Shown here: piece after piece, positions 752 to 6,692 of the stretch
How positions within the stretch are numbered: the first letter of the stretch is position 1
Layout of the letters: every line of letters begins with the position of its first letter
DNA from: a virus
Taxonomy: Duplodnaviria > Heunggongvirae > Uroviricota > Caudoviricetes
IMG/VR virus record: IMGVR_UViG_2711768074_000020
Coordinates: 1 to 6,902 of that record
Length of the DNA: 6,902 nt
Direction: 5' to 3' (one strand)
The notes under the pieces: model-generated
What the model was told of the DNA's origin: nothing
The model's input: only the letters and a program-made list of their open reading frames with translations
Database searches by the model: none
Position numbers and translations under genes: made by a program

Positions 752-795
752 ACAGATAACACAAAGCCCGTTTTCACGGGCTTTGTGTTATCTGT
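752..795. repeat. Perfect 20-bp inverted repeat with 4-nt loop (ACAGATAACACAAAGCCCGT-TTTC-ACGGGCTTTGTGTTATCTGT)
   Basis: Arms 752..771 and 776..795 are exact reverse complements; it lies 27 nt past the stop of the 823..1716 gene; there is no adjacent U-tract on either strand, so it is not a canonical intrinsic terminator. Confidence 0.6.
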
Positions 796-822: not shown

Positions 823-1716
823 CTATTTCCAGTTACAAGCAGCTTGAAGTGGTTTTAGCGCGTTTGACAGGCCGTTTAAATTGAAAGTTGCACTTACAGG
901 GCTCTCATTATAAGGAGTTATTTTTGTATACATTTTGTTTGAGTTGGCTAGTTTTCGGATGAAATCAATGTCATTACCTTTATAAAAAACAGCCTTTGTA
1001 TCTGTAGATACTAGCCAGTTTCGCTCAACTGCTTTCTGTTTATCAAGACGATAAAGCATGCTGGTTTGTTCAAGGCCTAAATATACATCCCAACTAAGAA
1101 ATACTTCGGTTTTCTTTTCTCGGCAAGCTATAAACAGAGTAGGAGTAACCGCTTCTCCAAATGGAGTTCTGATATAATCATCACTTTCTAACGATAAAAT
1201 TACATTTTTCGAATCATCAATTGGCGATGTAGTAATGGATGTGTGCCATTTTCCTACATCTGTGGCTTTCTCTAATTTTGATTCAGCTTGAACAGCTTTA
1301 TCCTGTGGGAATAGTTTATCGTAGCAGTTTAGTCTGGCTTCTTTATCATTTTCTGCTCGGCATTTAGATATCTCAGAAAGATTTGGTTGCTGAGCCTCTG
1401 TTGTTACTGGCTTTTCCGTTTTAGATTTTGAGTTTACAGATGGAGTAAATGTTGGAGAAAAAAAACGATCATAACAAGATAAACGTCTGTCATCATCTTT
1501 CTCATCAGGGCATTGATCTCTGCTTTCGAATTTTTCAGCAACTTTCGTTCGAGTCGGTTGTATTGACTTATCGTAACAAGAAAGTCTGTCTTTATTATTT
1601 TCTATTGCTCGGCACTGGAGTACTGCATTGAAGTTATTATGTTCAGTTGCTGCGTGAACAGGCAGTACACTAATTGATATAAATGATGCACCTATAGAAA
1701 AAATTATATTTTTCAT
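823..1716 (-). CDS. Secreted protein of unknown function with Sec signal peptide and three tandem C-x11-C-Y-D repeats plus a C-terminal ~150-aa domain
   Basis: 297-codon ORF; N-terminal MKN + hydrophobic core + VHA|A signal-peptidase I site, no lipobox Cys; repeats at residues 35-49, 69-83 and 119-133 (QCRAIENNKDRLSCYDK / QCPDEKDDDRRLSCYDR / KCRAENDKEARLNCYDK); AAGGA RBS 8 nt upstream, overlapping the end of the upstream gene (4-nt intergenic gap); AT-rich. Confidence 0.65.
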   Translation of the reverse strand: MKNIIFSIGASFISISVLPVHAATEHNNFNAVLQCRAIENNKDRLSCYDKSIQPTRTKVAEKFESRDQCPDEKDDDRRLSCYDRFFSPTFTPSVNSKSKTEKPVTTEAQQPNLSEISKCRAENDKEARLNCYDKLFPQDKAVQAESKLEKATDVGKWHTSITTSPIDDSKNVILSLESDDYIRTPFGEAVTPTLFIACREKKTEVFLSWDVYLGLEQTSMLYRLDKQKAVERNWLVSTDTKAVFYKGNDIDFIRKLANSNKMYTKITPYNESPVSATFNLNGLSNALKPLQAACNWK

Positions 1717-1720
1717 TTTG

Positions 1721-2053
1721 TTATCCTTTTGGTTTAGTAAGAAACACTAAAATTCCGATAATGATATCGCCAATAACCCATAAACTTCCAATGGTAATTA
1801 AACCTAAGCCTGTACCAATAACTGCACCGGCTTTTTCGGCATCGGATGTAGCATTATTTATTATTTCACTAGTGCCTCCCAGTCCAACTAAAAGCGTATA
1901 TATCATAAAAATATTAAATAATATAAAAATCCACTTAATGAGCTTTCCAAAAAATGAACGCTTAAGTTTTTTTATTTGTTTACCGCAAGCAGGGCAATAC
2001 AATGCTGAATCGCTCACCTCTTTCTGGCATTCAGGACATTTGATTAATGCCAT
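1721..2053 (-). CDS. Small zinc-ribbon membrane protein (N-terminal CPEC...CPAC ribbon, two predicted TM helices, glycine-zipper-like second helix)
   Basis: 110-codon ORF; ATG at 2053..2051 with AAGGAGG 7 nt upstream; CxxC-x10-CxxC at residues 6-23; hydrophobic stretches about 38-58 and 76-105 with G-x3-G spacing; AT-rich; first gene of an apparent two-gene operon. Confidence 0.65.
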   Translation of the reverse strand: MALIKCPECQKEVSDSALYCPACGKQIKKLKRSFFGKLIKWIFILFNIFMIYTLLVGLGGTSEIINNATSDAEKAGAVIGTGLGLITIGSLWVIGDIIIGILVFLTKPKG

Positions 2054-2107
2054 GTAATCCGCCTCCTTTGGATCAATACGAGTTGATATTTGTTACAAAA
2101 CATTTTG

Positions 2108-2135
2108 ATTTTATCAGATTTTTTTTTATTGATAA
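2108..2135 (-). promoter_or_regulatory. Putative sigma70-type promoter for the zinc-ribbon/secreted-protein operon
   Basis: On the minus strand, TTATCA (2135..2130), 16-nt spacer, TAAAAT (2113..2108), about 55 nt upstream of the ATG; A/T tract upstream. Hexamer matching by eye only. Confidence 0.2.
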
Positions 2136-2233: not shown

Positions 2234-2283
2234 TTAGAGCCGTGAGATAGGGTGCCTTATCGACCTTACCCTGGCAACCGATT

Positions 2284-2305
2284 GACGGGGGATTACTCCC
2301 CCGTC
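2284..2305 (-). other. Stable hairpin (9-bp stem GACGGGGGA/TCCCCCGTC, 4-nt loop) immediately 3' of the Hok-like ORF
   Basis: Perfect 9-bp GC-rich stem 10 nt past the stop at 2317..2315; hok-family mRNAs are known to carry structured 3' ends. Confidence 0.35.
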
Positions 2306-2314
2306 GCGGTTTCC

Positions 2315-3097: not shown

Positions 3098-4120
3098 ATG
3101 GGAAGAGATATAACGCTGTACCCTAAAAAAGCAACTAGAAACGAACTTAAAAATTACCTTGAAAATTTAGGTTTTAAAAGGTGTAAACATTTGTGGGAAT
3201 GGCCCCAAGGAACGTTGAATTACTCTTGGTTTGATGATACGGACTTCAAATCTACAGATGGAGTTTCGGCTGATATATATCCTGTTTCAAATGACGAACT
3301 ACACATATCTGGTAATAAATGGGCATTGCATGTGCGTAATTTATATAGCGCTAGTTGGCATGATGTAAAAATGCTTAATGATGTTCTAAAAGGCGCACGG
3401 AGTCTTTTTGGTGGAACACTTATAGGTGATTATGGGAAAAATAGGTACGCTCCTCTATGGAAGGATTCTAGTAGTCCGATCAGTCGTGGCATTTCTTCAA
3501 TATTTAATCATGTCCATCATGAGATTTCCGCTGTTAAACATGCCTTACCTGAACCTTCTATTAAATTAAACCTACCGGAAGATGGCGGCTTATCCGAATA
3601 CTTTGATTACATGCAATGTATGGATCCCAGTAGAGTTATATATAATGGATTAGTACCTTTTGCGGTTGCTATGTTTGAATATTTTTTCTCTAGAGCTTTT
3701 CAAATACTTATAAAGTACGATCCTTTCGCAATAGCAAAAAGAACATCGTATAAGCAAAAAGTTGATTTTGATATTCTGCTTGAGATAGAGAAAGGAAATA
3801 TTTCAATAGAAAGTGTTATTGCAAGAAATTACACTTTTCAAAACTTAACCCACCTAAACAAAGCATATAAAGAGTGGCTGGATATAGATGTGAGAGCGAT
3901 TCTTTATAAGAAAAAAAGAATTGGAAAATCAGTTGATTTTCTTGAGAATCGAATTTCTGAAATCATACAATATAGACATGGGATAGTTCATCACTTTGAG
4001 TTGGATAGGACCTTAAATCGGGATGGATATATTCATATATTAGATGCGATAGAAAAAAGCATAATTGAATTTATCCATTACATAGAAGGCAAATACAAAT
4101 TTAAATTAAATGCGTATTAA
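3098..4120 (+). CDS. Hypothetical 340-aa protein, AT-rich moron between D and ogr; helical C-terminal region with an R-x4-H (HEPN-like) motif; candidate abortive-infection/defence protein
   Basis: 340-codon ORF on the strand opposite both flanking phage genes; AGGTG RBS about 8 nt upstream; sampled GC roughly one-third versus over one-half in D and FI (counted by eye); motif YRHGIVHHF at residues 292-300; no recognisable Walker or other catalytic motif in the N-terminal half. Confidence 0.75.
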   Translation: MGRDITLYPKKATRNELKNYLENLGFKRCKHLWEWPQGTLNYSWFDDTDFKSTDGVSADIYPVSNDELHISGNKWALHVRNLYSASWHDVKMLNDVLKGARSLFGGTLIGDYGKNRYAPLWKDSSSPISRGISSIFNHVHHEISAVKHALPEPSIKLNLPEDGGLSEYFDYMQCMDPSRVIYNGLVPFAVAMFEYFFSRAFQILIKYDPFAIAKRTSYKQKVDFDILLEIEKGNISIESVIARNYTFQNLTHLNKAYKEWLDIDVRAILYKKKRIGKSVDFLENRISEIIQYRHGIVHHFELDRTLNRDGYIHILDAIEKSIIEFIHYIEGKYKFKLNAY

Positions 4121-4240: not shown

Positions 4241-5350
4241 TCACTCTGTTTCTGCTATCCATTCCGGGATTTTTGCCTCAAGCTCAAGCTGTGTGGTAAA
4301 GCCGCTGTTATCAATGGTGTGCTCGGCTTTTGCAATAATCCAGTCCTGATTATCAATCTCGCTTTTAAAGCCTGTTACCGTGCCATGCATTTCGGGGTAG
4401 AGTTCTGCGCGTCCGCGTGCCAGCATGATGGAGAATGATGCGGCTCCGCGTTGTAGCTGCTGCCACTTTGCCGCCGCTGCGCGTCTTGCTGCCTGCTCGT
4501 TCTGATAAGTCTTGCGTAACACAAACACATTGCCTTCCGCGCCTTCCATATAATCACCTTCACGGCTGCTGCTTTTCTCCTTTTTGGGTTTTGGCGGTTT
4601 GCGGCGTTTCACGCTGACTTTTTTCTTTTTCCCGTAATTAAGATCAAGCCAGTAGGCGCGTACACCCGTATACGCCTCGCGGTCAGCAATGCGGAACTGA
4701 TGGCGATCGCCGCTGCTGCGTGTGATGGCAAACGATGGCAACGGCTGGCCCTGCGCGTTCACGCCACCTCCGGGCATGATGAATAACAGATTACCGCTTT
4801 TTACCGTGGTGATTGCGCCCAGCATTTCCGCCATGCGCGTAAGGAAGGACATGTCGCTTTCTTCGGTCTGGTCGGCGTGGTCGATTTCGATATCCATCAG
4901 CATTTCGCTGATTTGCGGTTTCAGACCATACCGATGAGCGATGGCGGATACCACACGCTCAACGGTCACATCATGCCAGGACACCTCACGTTTAACGTTA
5001 AATTCATCCCGAAAATCTGCGCTTCTGGCTGAAACAGTCAGCCTGTCCGGCGGTCCTTCGTGAGCGATTTCATCAACAATGTAAGTGCCTTTTTCTGTCA
5101 GCGGTTCCCCTTTCCAGCCAATGAGAACCGTCAGACGCGCGCCCCGTGGCGGTAGCTGCAACTGGCCATCGGCATCATCCAGCGTGATGGTGAGCTGGTC
5201 CGCCTCAAATCCCCGGTTGTCGGTCAGTGACAGGTTCATCAGGCGTTCTGCCACGCCGGACAGCGTTTTACCCTCGGCGAGAATATCAAAATCCGGCATT
5301 TTCACGGGGTCTGTGCCCTGACTGAGCAATTGCATGGTGGTGTCGGTCAT
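4241..5350 (-). CDS. D: P2 gpD-like tail protein (late control gene D / gp27-VgrG-like baseplate hub family)
   Basis: ORF track gives 4241..5482, but the ATG at 5350 has a strong GGAGGGAG Shine-Dalgarno 3 nt upstream, whereas the 44-codon upstream extension is Ser/Thr/Arg-rich with no RBS. The 369-aa product is close to P2 gpD in size; motifs such as ESDMSFLTRMAEMLG resemble the gp27/VgrG N-terminal hub fold; same strand as and adjacent to ogr. Confidence 0.7.
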   Translation of the reverse strand: MTDTTMQLLSQGTDPVKMPDFDILAEGKTLSGVAERLMNLSLTDNRGFEADQLTITLDDADGQLQLPPRGARLTVLIGWKGEPLTEKGTYIVDEIAHEGPPDRLTVSARSADFRDEFNVKREVSWHDVTVERVVSAIAHRYGLKPQISEMLMDIEIDHADQTEESDMSFLTRMAEMLGAITTVKSGNLLFIMPGGGVNAQGQPLPSFAITRSSGDRHQFRIADREAYTGVRAYWLDLNYGKKKKVSVKRRKPPKPKKEKSSSREGDYMEGAEGNVFVLRKTYQNEQAARRAAAAKWQQLQRGAASFSIMLARGRAELYPEMHGTVTGFKSEIDNQDWIIAKAEHTIDNSGFTTQLELEAKIPEWIAETE

Positions 5351-5507
5351 CTGCTCCCTCCCTGTGTGGCATGGTCGCATGTGCGTGCGGAGGGGGTTAC
5401 TGCTTTTTGTTGTCGCCGTGGCGGGAGAACGGCGCAGGGGTGAGATTACGCGCGTGGTGGGTGATGATTGTTGCCGAATCATTTAACGGATACAAGGGGC
5501 TGAAGCT
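5351..5507. promoter_or_regulatory. Divergent intergenic region between D (-) and FI (+), presumably carrying late promoter(s)
   Basis: 157-bp GC-rich spacer between two divergent start codons, each with its own RBS (AGGGG 8 nt upstream of the FI ATG). No clear TGT-N12-ACA Ogr-type dyad was seen by eye. Confidence 0.3.
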
Positions 5508-6692
5508 ATGAGTGAAACTCGTTTTCATGGTGCCCGTGTTACGGAAAATACCGACCTGGTAACAGCGATTAACGATGTTGATTCCAGCGTTATCGGTATC
5601 GTGGTAACGGCGGATGATGCGGACGCGAAGCTGTTCCCGCTGAACAAGCCCACACTGCTGACCCGCGTCAATGACGTGCTGGGAAAATGCGGAACAACGG
5701 GGACGCTTTATCGTGCGCTTAAGGCCATCGCAGACCAGGTGAGCACAAAGGTGATCGTCGTTCGCGTGGCTGAACACAAAGAAGAAGACGAAAAGACGCA
5801 GGATCAACTGGTTATCGGTGGTTCTGAGGATGACGGCAGCTATACGGGGATGTATGCGCTGCTTGTTGCAGAGCAGGATGAAAGCATCGGATACCGTCCG
5901 CGTATTCTGGCCGCGCCGGAGCTGGACACGGAGGCGGTGACAAAATCCCTGTGCGTGATTGCGGGTAAACTGCGCGCATTTGTGTATGCCTCATGTCACG
6001 GCTGTAACACGATGGCTGAAGCGATTACCTACCGCCAGAAATTCAACGAACGTGAAGTGATGCTCTTATGGCCGGACTTCATCGCCTACAACCCGAAAAG
6101 TGGCGAAAACGAAACGTTCCCCGCGCCTGCTTATGCGTGCGGCCTTCGTGCGTACATTGACCATGAGCAGGGCTGGCACAAATCGCTGTCCAACGTTCCG
6201 GTTAAAAATGTGCTGGGGATGTCGAGGCATGTGTTCTGGTCGTTGCAGGCCGAAGACAGCGATGCCAACAGCCTCAACAACAAAGAAATCACGACCATTA
6301 TTCGTCGCAACGGGTTCCGCTTCTGGGGCAACCGCACACCGGAAACGAACGCCTACATTTTTGAGGTGTATACCCGAACCGCACAGGTGCTGGCTGATTC
6401 AATTGCGGAAGCGCAGTTTGAAACCATCGACAGTCCACTGACGCCTGCGAACGTGAAGGATGTTATCAGTGCCATCAGGGCAAAACTGGATTCACTGGTT
6501 ACTGCCGGGAAACTGATTGGCGCAGAGTGCTGGTATGACGTGGTGGATAACAGCACCACGGATTTACGTCAGGGGCGTGTGCGTATTCGCTACAAATATA
6601 CGCCCGTTCCGCCACTGGAAGACATGGAGCTTTACCAGACGTTTACTGATGAATACTTTGAACCCGCATTTGCGGTGCTGGGAGGTGCCTGA
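5508..6692 (+). CDS. FI: P2 FI-like contractile tail sheath protein
   Basis: 394-codon ORF; motifs FPLNKP, GFRFWGNRT, YTRTAQV, HEQGWHKSLSNV and YKYTPVPPLED match the recalled P2-family tail sheath; the stop overlaps the next start (TGATG). Confidence 0.85.
   Translation: MSETRFHGARVTENTDLVTAINDVDSSVIGIVVTADDADAKLFPLNKPTLLTRVNDVLGKCGTTGTLYRALKAIADQVSTKVIVVRVAEHKEEDEKTQDQLVIGGSEDDGSYTGMYALLVAEQDESIGYRPRILAAPELDTEAVTKSLCVIAGKLRAFVYASCHGCNTMAEAITYRQKFNEREVMLLWPDFIAYNPKSGENETFPAPAYACGLRAYIDHEQGWHKSLSNVPVKNVLGMSRHVFWSLQAEDSDANSLNNKEITTIIRRNGFRFWGNRTPETNAYIFEVYTRTAQVLADSIAEAQFETIDSPLTPANVKDVISAIRAKLDSLVTAGKLIGAECWYDVVDNSTTDLRQGRVRIRYKYTPVPPLEDMELYQTFTDEYFEPAFAVLGGA

Follow-up and report, generated by a model that had tools for sequence, protein, structure and literature searches.

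What kind of unit is the AT-rich gene pair that lies at one end of an Escherichia coli prophage, and what might its two products do? A sequence-only reading had described the pair, here called genes A and B, as a two-gene operon of foreign composition next to prophage cargo. It could assign neither protein to a known system, and offered a toxin/immunity, exclusion or envelope module as possible interpretations. We analyzed the whole stretch of DNA in which the pair lies, 6,902 nt of the IMG/VR record IMGVR_UViG_2711768074_000020, hereafter the window.

A cargo unit at the end of a P2-like prophage

The window contains prophage genes and the host gene flk, and represents the end of an E. coli P2-like (Peduoviridae) prophage adjoining flk, which confirms the prophage-cargo setting. 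The genes ogr, gpD, sheath and hok are found near the pair, and the hok/mok killer gene adjoins gene A. Both open reading frames called in the sequence-only reading were recovered at exactly its coordinates on the minus strand (Table 1). The junction between them, AAA CCA AAA GGA TAA caaa ATG, agrees with an operon in which a gap of 4 nt (1717–1720) separates the genes and the ribosome-binding site of B falls within the 3′ end of A. The composition is foreign as proposed, with a GC content of 0.342 in A and 0.362 in B (34–36%) against 0.53 in flk and 0.54–0.55 in the tail genes (53–55%). The unit opens with a hairpin and a conserved sigma-70-type promoter ahead of gene A; gene B follows after the 4-nt gap, and a long hairpin then leads to host flk. 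We regard this anatomy and location as highly secure.

Table 1. Coordinates of the genes, predicted signals and protein regions of the A–B unit within the window
Feature	Position	Strand	Description
Gene A	1721..2053	-	110 aa; stop TAA at 1721–1723; zinc ribbon and two-helix membrane hairpin
Gene B	823..1716	-	297 aa; stop TAG at 823–825; exported, VasI/TagO family, IalB fold (predicted)
G+C-rich hairpin	2283..2306		between hok and the cassette promoter; terminator-like; upstream bound of the unit
Sigma-70-type promoter (predicted)	2108..2135	-	-35 TTATCA, 16-nt spacer, extended -10 TGaTAAAAT
Shine-Dalgarno AGGAGG of gene A	2062..2067	-	8 nt before the ATG; read from the sequence
C4 zinc ribbon of A	1976..2044	-	residues 4–26; C6, C9, C20, C23; PF13240; predicted cytoplasmic
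DrpB-like two-helix membrane domain of A	1727..1972	-	residues 28–109; zipper and invariant T106-x-P108
Shine-Dalgarno AAGGA of gene B	1724..1728	-	within the last codons of A
Signal peptide of B	1651..1716	-	residues 1–22; cleavage after VHA inferred from the sequence; no lipobox
Cys repeat 1 of B	1570..1614	-	C35-x11-C47, RLSCYD; helical hairpin in the model, pLDDT about 77–79
Cys repeat 2 of B	1468..1512	-	C69-x11-C81, RLSCYD
T8 homopolymer	1458..1465	-	A8 on the plus strand; linker after repeat 2; T7 alleles frameshifted
Cys repeat 3 of B	1318..1362	-	C119-x11-C131, RLNCYD; copy present in all family members
IalB/VasI beta-sandwich of B	826..1263	-	residues 152–297; conserved pair C198/C294
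Inverted repeat	752..795		19-bp perfect, 6-nt loop; acagataacacaaagcccg ttttca cgggctttgtgttatctgt; 28 nt downstream of the B stop

The cassette promoter matches the consensus at 9 of 12 positions and has the TG element, as a consensus match of a kind whose frequency in this region is not above that in shuffled sequences. In loci of several genera, the arrangement TTGTCA-16/17-GATAAAAT, followed by caaaatgttttgtaacaaat, is kept upstream of A, and relatives carry a GCCCCGC...GCGGGGC hairpin at the equivalent place, directly upstream of the promoter. The perfect inverted repeat downstream of B is, by its form, probably a terminator at the prophage/host boundary. An Rfam search of the window gave no match.

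In the P2-like prophage, ogr/hok and the attachment site enclose a variable slot, which holds the pair and in free phage genomes lies between hok/ogr and int. In phage Chuche the slot holds other cargo (com and a DNA methyltransferase), and in P88_4B11 it holds extra genes. Prophage morons are independent promoter–gene–terminator cargo units (reviewed in PMC3594210). Like them, A–B has its own predicted promoter and terminator within flanking hairpins, a deviant composition, and a variable position beside the attachment site that is dispensable in related phages. The pair is thus a self-contained cargo unit, or moron, of a P2-like E. coli prophage, a class defined by anatomy and not by function.

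A service to the lytic cycle, such as holin/antiholin-like timing, lysis or an assembly aid, is very unlikely for this unit. Small two-helix glycine-zipper membrane proteins do resemble holins, and the pair adjoins the late activator gene ogr, but the Ogr-type late-promoter motif TGT-N12-ACA was not found anywhere in the window, where a sigma-70-type promoter is present instead. Moreover, the slot is variable, viable relatives such as Chuche hold other cargo in it, and B also occurs in repressor–int operons and integron cassettes.

The A–B region was present in 237–240 of 5426 complete E. coli genomes (about 4%), where it is annotated as two CDS, and dozens of full-length homologues were found for each protein. 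These observations indicate that A and B are real genes rather than chance open reading frames. Carriers include the ExPEC strain IHE3034, APEC, ETEC and EPEC-type strains, as well as the functional Citrobacter rodentium phage PhiSM. Both protein families are already catalogued, with phage-family matches to phrog_6586 for A (E 7e-43) and to phrog_1848 for B, and neither belongs to a housekeeping family. The pair as a unit has not been described before. RefSeq protein accessions and locus tags of the pair were not found in the literature, A and B are absent from the supplementary tables of a P2/P4 hotspot study, and VasI, TagO, IalB and zinc ribbons go unmentioned in the texts and supplements of two P2/P4 hotspot papers. 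PADLOC-DB v2 models likewise gave no match for A, B or a neighbouring HEPN-like open reading frame at E values up to 0.1.

Protein A and its similarity to DrpB

Structure modelling and residue composition together show A as a predicted inner-membrane protein whose two ends are cytoplasmic and which exposes a loop of ~17 residues to the periplasm. Its N-terminal CPEC...CPAC motif matches Pfam Zn_Ribbon_1 (PF13240) over residues 5–26 (E 1.8e-7; 31.2 bits against a cut-off of 25 bits). In homologues of A, C6, C20 and C23 are invariant and C9 is nearly so. The AlphaFold2 model (mean pLDDT 76) places beta strands in this region, forming a small beta ribbon that is followed by helices at residues 34–66 and 71–105. 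The protein has two hydrophobic segments, and an N-in/C-in topology agrees with its basic flanks (KKLKRSFFGK and TKPKG) and acidic loop. It carries the glycine zipper G76xxxG80xxxG84, and A75, G76, A77 and G80 are nearly invariant among 29 homologues. The earlier description of A as a cytoplasmic zinc ribbon joined to two transmembrane helices with a glycine zipper was therefore borne out, and RefSeq names the protein "zinc ribbon domain-containing protein".

The membrane domain of A also occurs in many proteins of 85–100 aa that have no zinc ribbon (E 1e-17 to 1e-22). The family comprised 337 clusters at E < 1e-10, many of them containing relatives without the ribbon. A periplasmic loop motif, S/T-D-A-E-x-A-G, is conserved also in family members without B.

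Within E. coli, the protein that this hairpin recalls is DrpB (YedR), a septal-ring protein whose overproduction activates the envelope-stress responses Rcs and Psp. Its septal localization, multicopy suppression of an ftsEX deletion and Rcs/Psp activation were established by experiment, and multicopy DrpB is tolerated and even beneficial. Residues 28–110 of A fit the DrpB architecture, defined as about 85–103 aa with two membrane helices, cytoplasmic termini and a periplasmic loop of about 20 aa, and the two proteins are collinear over 77–80 aligned residues. Both have RSxxGK..W.F before helix 1, GxxxGxxxG in helix 2 and T-[RK]-P-[KR] after helix 2. The reported topology of DrpB agrees with that of A, and both proteins are most strongly conserved where helix 2 ends (PMC7648144). 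T89 of DrpB is required for Rcs activation (PMC11709261); this residue aligns with the invariant T106 of A. Unlike the chromosomally encoded DrpB, A carries an N-terminal zinc ribbon and is prophage cargo.

The similarity recurred across searches and fell below threshold in every curated library scored. The DrpB equivalog model NF038392 gave A 22.1 bits against a cut-off of 50 (E 1.4e-4; model positions 2–84 of 86), the Pfam DrpB family PF28000 had only precomputed matches labelled "weak", on homologues of A, and hhalign of A against DrpB returned E 0.002 with a probability of 14%. In the opposite direction, a profile of 172 A-type domains scored DrpB at 23.7 bits, compared with -1.7 for reversed DrpB and a mean of 0.6 (SD 2.8, maximum 18.4 bits) for 2000 segment-wise shuffles of DrpB. 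On this evidence, DrpB appears to be a divergent member of the large family of small membrane proteins to which the hairpin of A belongs, although two membrane hairpins of this size could also resemble each other by chance.

Protein B and the VasI/TagO family

Protein B is predicted to be exported, as had been proposed. Its only hydrophobic segment is N-terminal, ends in VHA|A and is conserved in homologues, and is read as a Sec-type signal peptide. The structural model shows the remainder of the protein as three Cx11C helical hairpins on flexible linkers, followed by an IalB/VasI-type beta-sandwich. The third hairpin coincides with the start of the Pfam VasI model, and its C119, R128, L129, C131 and D133 are invariant among 65 sequences. 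Repeat 2 is missing in one-repeat homologues, and two-repeat homologues lack a middle repeat. Together with the conserved C198 and C294, B has eight conserved cysteines, which suggest four disulfides and fit a periplasmic protein.

The claim that neither protein could be assigned did not stand, since B scored well above the threshold for Pfam VasI (PF11319; E 2.6e-25; 89.6 bits against a cut-off of 26.5), is named "T6SS-associated protein TagO" in RefSeq (PGAP), and has a PhiSM copy that was already described as cargo under the name "T6SS VasI family protein" (PMC6456863), while the membrane domain of A is weakly but repeatedly DrpB-like. Residues 118–296 of B cover positions 1–184 of the 184 in the VasI model. 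Like VasI/TagO proteins such as Vibrio cholerae VCA0118 and ECs_0222, the VasI of the E. coli Sakai T6SS cluster, B has in its last 180 residues one Cx11C "RLxCYD" hairpin and a beta-sandwich with two conserved cysteines, and a signal peptide in front. In contrast to the VasI/TagO proteins of T6SS, B carries two extra N-terminal Cys hairpins and is encoded on mobile elements with gene A upstream, whereas the Sakai T6SS cluster has no gene A.

These similarities raise the possibility that B is a TagO/VasI accessory working in trans with a host T6SS, with A unrelated or a helper membrane protein. The match over the whole Pfam model, the 26% identity to ECs_0222 over 195 aa with conserved cysteine positions, the PGAP name and the listing of B as T6SS-related cargo by the PhiSM authors would all be compatible with such a role. 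On the T6SS VasI equivalog TIGR03360, however, B scored 75.9 bits, below the cut-off of 124.2, and other mobile-element members of its branch scored 31–62 bits, compared with 257.4 for ECs_0222. We took a position between tssH/vasH and tssA/tssM as the canonical T6SS placement of VasI/TagO, which ECs_0222 occupies. No T6SS neighbours were seen in 78 viral loci or in 7 genomic look-ups, and none of about 85 distinct loci of the B branch lay in a T6SS cluster; they were prophage ends, repressor–integrase operons, an island and integron cassettes. For the role of TagO/VasI in T6SS itself, a 2026 review gives "Unknown" (PMC13584744). Action in trans with a host T6SS is thus distinctly improbable. 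Scores and gene neighbourhoods instead place B in a branch of the VasI/TagO family that is carried by mobile elements, and not among the orthologues of the T6SS-cluster protein. That "TagO"-labelled proteins of this branch are prophage and integron cargo rather than T6SS parts appears to be new, as does the DrpB-like protein usually encoded upstream of them, and corrects a misleading annotation.

The predicted fold of B is also that of IalB (PDB 3DTD), to which B is 19% identical and which has no Cys-hairpin repeats; the match to Pfam IalB (PF06776) reached 20.6 bits, below the gathering score of 22.1 (E 5e-4). Searching the PDB by the sequence of B produced nothing beyond a tubby-like match at chance level (E 0.02). 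IalB is tied to Bartonella invasion, and the unit might by analogy be a host-interaction or virulence factor, with B promoting adhesion or invasion or otherwise acting on an animal host. We consider this a poor prospect, less probable still than the T6SS accessory. Carriage by ExPEC IHE3034, APEC, ETEC and EPEC-type strains and the classification of the PhiSM copy as virulence-associated cargo speak for it, but B has a Sec signal peptide only, with no recognisable route past the periplasm, IalB has been reported as an inner-membrane protein, and the same branch occurs in marine and environmental Vibrio, Marinomonas, Photobacterium and Thiohalophilus.

Linkage of A and B and a possible role in the envelope

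The co-occurrence of the pair in other genomes was confirmed by gene-neighbourhood analysis: of 129 A loci, 99 had B downstream, and A lay upstream in 63 of 78 viral B loci. The two genes stay adjacent even where A has diverged to about 65% identity and B to about 40%, and such divergent pairs were seen in Escherichia, Klebsiella, Raoultella, Citrobacter and viral contigs. The linkage is not strict: in about 30 of the 129 loci A stands alone or has a different partner, and B occurs without A in 15 of the 78 viral loci, two of them at contig ends, and also as a single-gene integron cassette. Where other genes were tightly coupled downstream of A, their product had a signal peptide in about 10 of 11 loci. 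Exported products are thus nearly universal for genes in this coupled position, and point to a functional theme. Upstream zinc-ribbon membrane proteins beside distant A homologues (L009, L012 and L014) had no VasI-like domain.

Because A and B are each found alone, a joint mechanism is not required, and the same finding argues against a toxin/immunity pair. Such a pair, or an addiction module, would cast A as a membrane-perturbing glycine-zipper toxin and B as the antidote, or assign these roles the other way round, and the small size of A, its zipper, its place beside hok/mok and its tight coupling to B are features that would suit it. Solitary occurrence of A in about 30 loci, and of B in prophages and an integron cassette, is not what obligate partners would show, and the domain family of A includes many solitary small proteins and probably also the chromosomal DrpB, which is tolerated in multicopy. 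In addition, B is exported, yet the non-membrane part of A is mostly cytoplasmic. We regard the toxin/immunity interpretation as highly improbable.

The same solitary loci, together with the conservation of the A loop motif in relatives without B, are consistent with A and B being independent neighbouring cargo genes, A acting on division or envelope-stress signalling and B doing something unrelated in the periplasm. This alternative is rather unlikely given that the genes share one promoter and a 4-nt gap with the ribosome-binding site of B inside A, that their adjacency outlasts their divergence, and that an exported product is the rule for genes coupled downstream of A.

A fusion protein, P0121, combines the zinc ribbon of A with the signal peptide and VasI domain of B, and could be taken as evidence that the two work jointly; it was given no weight, as only one contig carries it and it has the look of an in-frame deletion. 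Elsewhere among P2-like prophages, a one-repeat B lies between a repressor-type HTH gene and int and shares their strand. We rejected the reading of these HTH–B–integrase loci as P4-like satellites, since their genes match phage repressor-type regulators and integrases and their divergent early genes resemble a P2-type immunity region.

Overall, the sequence-only reading held for the operon, its composition and setting, the anatomy of both proteins and their co-occurrence, and was not borne out on unassignability and on toxin/immunity. Among its suggestions, an exclusion or envelope module is the most plausible. It is reasonably probable that the unit is an envelope module expressed in the lysogen, neither a T6SS part nor a toxin/immunity pair. 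The unit would be transcribed in the lysogen from its own predicted promoter, and the repressor–B–int arrangement of other P2-like prophages would support lysogenic expression. Both products would act in the cell envelope to the benefit of the lysogen, B in the periplasm and A at the inner membrane, where it might influence the divisome or Rcs/Psp signalling in the manner of DrpB, and the two would be separable modules rather than obligate partners. In Sinorhizobium meliloti, RgsG, a periplasmic protein with an IalB domain, is found at the growth and division zones (PMC7327166). Taken as a whole, our best explanation is a lysogen-expressed envelope cargo unit that is perhaps protective, which we hold tentatively.

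As to what such protection might be, our best guess is that the envelope of the lysogen would be guarded against incoming contractile injection devices, by superinfection exclusion of phages or by tolerance of tailocins or T6SS attack. Imm and Sp of phage T4 are superinfection-exclusion proteins of a virulent phage and do not form an operon. They offer an analogy, in likeness of mechanism only, of a small membrane protein and a periplasm-facing phage protein guarding the cell envelope from further injection. A specific protective or exclusion role of A–B is doubtful, although unknown-function genes in P4-satellite defence loci were antiviral in 6 of 8 cases tested, and machine-learning scores flagged 15–32% of P2 unknown proteins as possible defence genes (PMC13586616).

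A further-reaching version, in which a mobile VasI/IalB-fold branch and a DrpB-like zinc-ribbon protein constitute a new kind of envelope-level immunity, is improbable. In such a system B would be a periplasmic shield and A an inner-membrane sensor or actuator, directed against contractile injection machines (phage tails, tailocins and T6SS). If true, it would explain the VasI paralogue within T6SS clusters, as self-protection or passage through the envelope, and would give DrpB-type proteins a physiological role. Independently of this version, three families without a known mechanism, VasI/TagO, IalB and DrpB, the last a membrane protein of cell division that activates Rcs and whose loss gives no phenotype, meet here in one small, easily manipulated cassette.

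The T8 tract in the linker after repeat 2 varies among E. coli genomes. T7 alleles of B occur in two sequence backgrounds and give rise to a split annotation, "TagO | hypothetical protein". These frameshifted alleles persist in a whole E. coli sub-lineage, which indicates that selection on B is not strong everywhere.

Anatomy and prophage setting of the A–B cassette

A sequence-only reading had proposed a two-gene operon of foreign composition here, and both ORFs were recovered exactly where it had placed them. Gene A, encoding a 110-aa zinc-ribbon membrane protein, and gene B, encoding a 297-aa exported protein of the VasI/TagO family, are separated by 4 nt (...AAA CCA AAA GGA TAA caaa ATG...), and by sequence reading the AAGGA ribosome-binding site of B sits within the last codons of A. 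A strong AGGAGG lies 8 nt 5′ of the A start codon. The GC contents of A (0.34) and B (0.36), against 0.53 for flk and 0.54–0.55 for the tail genes, agreed with the proposed foreign composition.

Features of the A–B cassette, its neighbours and related loci (positions are in the window unless preceded by an L-number, which denotes an inspected homologue locus)
Feature	Position	Strand	Details
Insertion-sequence end	1-119 (junction 119/120)		multicopy, up to 31 copies per E. coli genome
Perfect 19-bp inverted repeat	752-795		3′ of B; sequence reading
Gene B	1716..823	minus	297-aa ORF
T8 run in gene B (A8 on + strand)	1458-1465	minus	linker after Cys repeat 2
Gene A	2053..1721	minus	110-aa ORF
hok/gef-family killer gene	2315-2455	minus	PF01848, E 3.7e-7; annotated MokW-like; between ogr and cassette
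HEPN-like ORF	3098-4120	+	340 aa, GC 0.34; between ogr and tail gene D
Tail gene D and ogr opposite sheath/tube operon	4241-6692		
One-repeat B, HTH–int position	L231:5509-7563; L236; L238; L240; L250:7584-9626		other P2-like prophages
Unrelated small signal-peptide genes	L127:8330-8779; L119:3317-3625; L126:5527-5874; L121; L013; L101, L116		3′ of distant A homologues
B-branch gene, V. vulnificus	L251:7841-8740		
A–B fusion (P0121)	L246:7001-7732		

Many E. coli strains, IHE3034 among them, carry beside flk a P2-like (Peduoviridae) prophage to which the region is 99–100% identical; the deposited phage 500465-2 also matches the region. At least 80% of it was found in 237 of 5,426 complete E. 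coli genomes, and the B gene in 240 genomes of this set; nine of the 241 B-matching places in E. coli were on plasmid-labelled records (e.g., NZ_CP023347.1, a 142-kb plasmid record of ETEC-2265). Neighbours of the pair in the window are hok/mok, ogr, an AT-rich HEPN-like ORF, tail gene D and the sheath gene. The pair is also present in phages PhiR44_2, P88_4B11 and Citrobacter phage PhiSM, and in free phage genomes it lies between hok/ogr and int, thus adjoining attP. The slot contains com and a DNA methyltransferase in Chuche and extra small genes in P88_4B11. Since its contents differ among phages, we regard it as a variable cargo slot, consistent with the prophage-cargo setting initially suggested.

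The HEPN-like ORF, whose HEPN (RiboL-PSP) match is weak and sub-threshold (E 1.2e-4) and for which PADLOC, PHROG and NCBIfam gave no match, is missing from Chuche and P88_4B11, in both of which ogr and gene D are directly adjacent. We regard it as a probable second cargo gene and a defence-gene candidate. An Rfam scan of the whole window returned no family at gathering score, hence no antisense Sok-like RNA was detected. The flk gene is cut off after about 147 codons by an insertion sequence whose terminal sequence (...GTGTATAAGAGACAG) resembles an IS50/Tn5-type end; at the corresponding place in IHE3034, flk is intact. Tail gene D and ogr lie on the strand opposite the sheath/tube operon, with D and the sheath gene diverging from a 25-nt spacer; this arrangement, which departs from the gene order of P2 itself, is also found in phages 500465-2, Chuche and P88_4B11.

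Upstream of A, we found a sigma-70-type promoter with an extended −10 element (TTATCA-16-TGaTAAAAT). Promoter-like matches are no commoner here than in shuffled sequence, and the case for this promoter is made by its conservation rather than by match frequency: TTGTCA-16/17-GATAAAAT and the next 20 nt are kept 5′ of A across loci from different genera. At the relatives' loci, a GC-rich terminator hairpin of the preceding gene lies directly 5′ of the conserved promoter. A search throughout the window for TGT-N12-ACA, the type of site that Ogr uses at the late promoters of P2, found none. P2 lysogens transcribe C and int together. From the sigma-70-type promoter, the lack of the late-promoter motif and the location of B in repressor–int operons elsewhere, we infer that the cassette would be expressed in the lysogen. 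Its promoter, genes, terminator, deviant composition and dispensable position constitute the anatomy of a prophage 'moron'.

Relationship of protein B to VasI of the type VI secretion system

Neither protein had been assignable to a known system from the sequence alone, which no longer holds for B. The protein passes the Pfam VasI threshold (PF11319, E 2.6e-25) with the whole model covered and the extra repeats matching the model start; RefSeq names it 'type VI secretion system-associated protein TagO', and in a 2019 study of C. rodentium phage PhiSM the same gene is listed, by annotation only, as 'T6SS VasI family protein' cargo (PMC6456863). Its single N-terminal hydrophobic segment ending VHA|A supports the export originally predicted. 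It contains three Cx11C repeats, each ending RLxCYD, and two further conserved cysteines, and we infer that it is periplasmic and disulfide-bonded. The structural model (65 sequences) consists of three short helical hairpins with disordered linkers between them and a C-terminal beta-sandwich (residues about 152–297, pLDDT above 90). Homologues have one, two or three repeats, with the last repeat and the sandwich invariably present.

We compared B with ECs_0222, the VasI inside the E. coli Sakai T6SS cluster, located between clpV and tssA/tssM. The two share 26% identity over 195 residues and the same cysteine positions, but on TIGR03360, the T6SS VasI equivalog model (cut-off 124 bits), ECs_0222 scored 257 bits, whereas B scored 76 bits and three more members of its mobile-element-borne branch 31–62 bits. 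No T6SS cluster was found among the inspected loci of this branch. These loci include P2-like prophage ends, an island next to an integrase in Thiohalophilus, a stand-alone gene beside an LprI-family gene in Photobacterium, and arrays with toxin–antitoxin genes in Marinomonas and Vibrio. In V. vulnificus, 126-nt repeats (13 copies in 8.9 kb) flank the gene amid toxin–antitoxin genes, which identifies it as a chromosomal-integron cassette; the Marinomonas array (L248) resembles this one. Other P2-like prophages carry a one-repeat B without A, between a repressor-type HTH gene and int and on the same strand. Because B occupies either this or the ogr-side position, the family borders attP on either side in different phages. 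On these sequence comparisons, B is a VasI homologue but not a member of the T6SS orthologue group. The function of TagO/VasI itself is given as unknown in a 2026 review (PMC13584744).

Alleles of B with T7 in place of the T8 run are frameshifted into two ORFs, labelled 'TagO | hypothetical protein' in RefSeq. They occur in two sequence backgrounds, at 99.6% and about 93–94% identity, the latter a whole E. coli sub-lineage. Their persistence suggests that B is dispensable in those backgrounds or that the tract is a switch; the T7 alleles could reflect decay, a switch driven by slippage or, where only a single contig is concerned, an error of sequencing.

Protein A and its probable relationship to DrpB

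The zinc ribbon, two membrane helices and glycine zipper predicted for A were all confirmed: its CPEC...CPAC motif matched Pfam Zn_Ribbon_1 above threshold (E 1.8e-7), and two hydrophobic helices were found together with a G76xxxG80xxxG84 zipper. AlphaFold2 (29 homologues) gave a small beta ribbon and helices at 34–66 and 71–105. About 60 close full-length homologues were found in Enterobacterales and Pasteurellaceae (mean column identity 73%), and 337 clusters at E < 1e-10 emerged when 1.84 billion representative proteins were searched with a profile. Many A-family clusters comprise an 85–100-aa membrane domain alone, without the zinc ribbon (E 1e-17 to 1e-22), indicating that the two-helix hairpin is an independent domain and the zinc ribbon an add-on.

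Several lines of similarity, sub-threshold in every comparison, also connect A to a known protein, DrpB (YedR). The NCBIfam DrpB match of A spans the whole model below the cut-off (22 vs 50 bits, E 1.4e-4), A homologues have precomputed Pfam PF28000 (DrpB) matches graded 'weak', and the A–DrpB alignment is collinear (BLASTP/hhalign). A profile built from 172 A-type domains scored DrpB at 23.7 bits, against a maximum of 18.4 and a mean of 0.6 for 2,000 shuffles in which each topological segment was preserved. Both proteins have an RSxxGK..W.F juxtamembrane motif, GxxxGxxxG in helix 2 and a terminal T-[RK]-P-[KR]. The invariant T106 of A aligns with DrpB T89, which is required for activation of the Rcs phosphorelay upon overproduction (PMC11709261). 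DrpB is a protein of the septal ring and a multicopy suppressor of ftsEX deletion, has both termini in the cytoplasm and also induces Psp (PMC7648144, PMC11709261). E. coli DrpB is probably a divergent member of the A membrane-domain family. The positive-inside rule and the DrpB topology point to an N-in/C-in orientation of A, with a cytoplasmic zinc ribbon.

Linkage of A and B and proposed role

The pairing of the two genes proved recurrent but not constant. B lies directly 3′ of A in 99 of 129 loci with full-length A (a redundant set), A directly precedes B in 63 of 78 viral loci with B, and adjacency is kept down to about 65% identity for A and about 40% for B. Each gene also occurs alone: A in Pantoea, Psychrobacter, Haemophilus and a P2-like prophage at the same ogr-proximal slot (L113), and B at the HTH–int position, in an island, as a stand-alone gene and in integron cassettes. 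This separability argues against an obligate toxin/immunity pair, one of the roles first considered.

In about 10 of 11 loci where another gene is tightly coupled 3′ of A, the product of that gene carries a signal peptide; among these alternative exported partners are a secreted staphylococcal-type nuclease, small Cys-rich proteins and a lipoprotein. Next to distant A homologues, stop and start codons often overlap (at L101 and L116 the partner begins about 49 nt after A), and the Cys-rich partners are 75–115 aa long. At four distant loci (L009, L010, L012 and L014), a larger zinc-ribbon membrane protein, about 235–280 aa where measured, precedes A. Overall, A looks like a small, conserved membrane protein for which an exported partner, variable in identity, is frequent but not universal, and such linkage would fit a loose functional theme in the envelope.

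Because both genes are annotated in RefSeq, each belongs to a PHROG family of unknown function and B had been listed as PhiSM cargo, the feature itself is not new. What appears to be new is that the whole 'TagO' branch of B is mobile-element cargo and not a T6SS part, that the protein usually paired with it combines a zinc ribbon with a DrpB-like membrane domain, and that this partner recurs with other exported proteins.

Remote relatives of both halves are found at the envelope division/growth zone, namely DrpB for A and the IalB-domain protein RgsG for B, and in P4 satellite defence loci six of eight tested function-unknown genes proved antiviral. The proposed function draws on these relatives and this antiviral record. 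We favour, with some confidence, a lysogen-expressed envelope module that is neither a T6SS part nor a toxin/immunity pair. Our best guess at the specific role, of rather low probability, is that the pair would serve in lysogenic conversion by hardening or modifying the envelope against injection devices arriving from outside, possibly through DrpB-like signalling. Known defence models gave no match for A or B, and we consider a new envelope-level immunity mechanism unlikelier still.

One contig from a metagenomic P2-like prophage encodes an in-frame fusion (P0121) that joins the zinc ribbon of A to the signal peptide and VasI domain of B. The fusion occupies the same slot after ogr and is most simply explained as an internal deletion.
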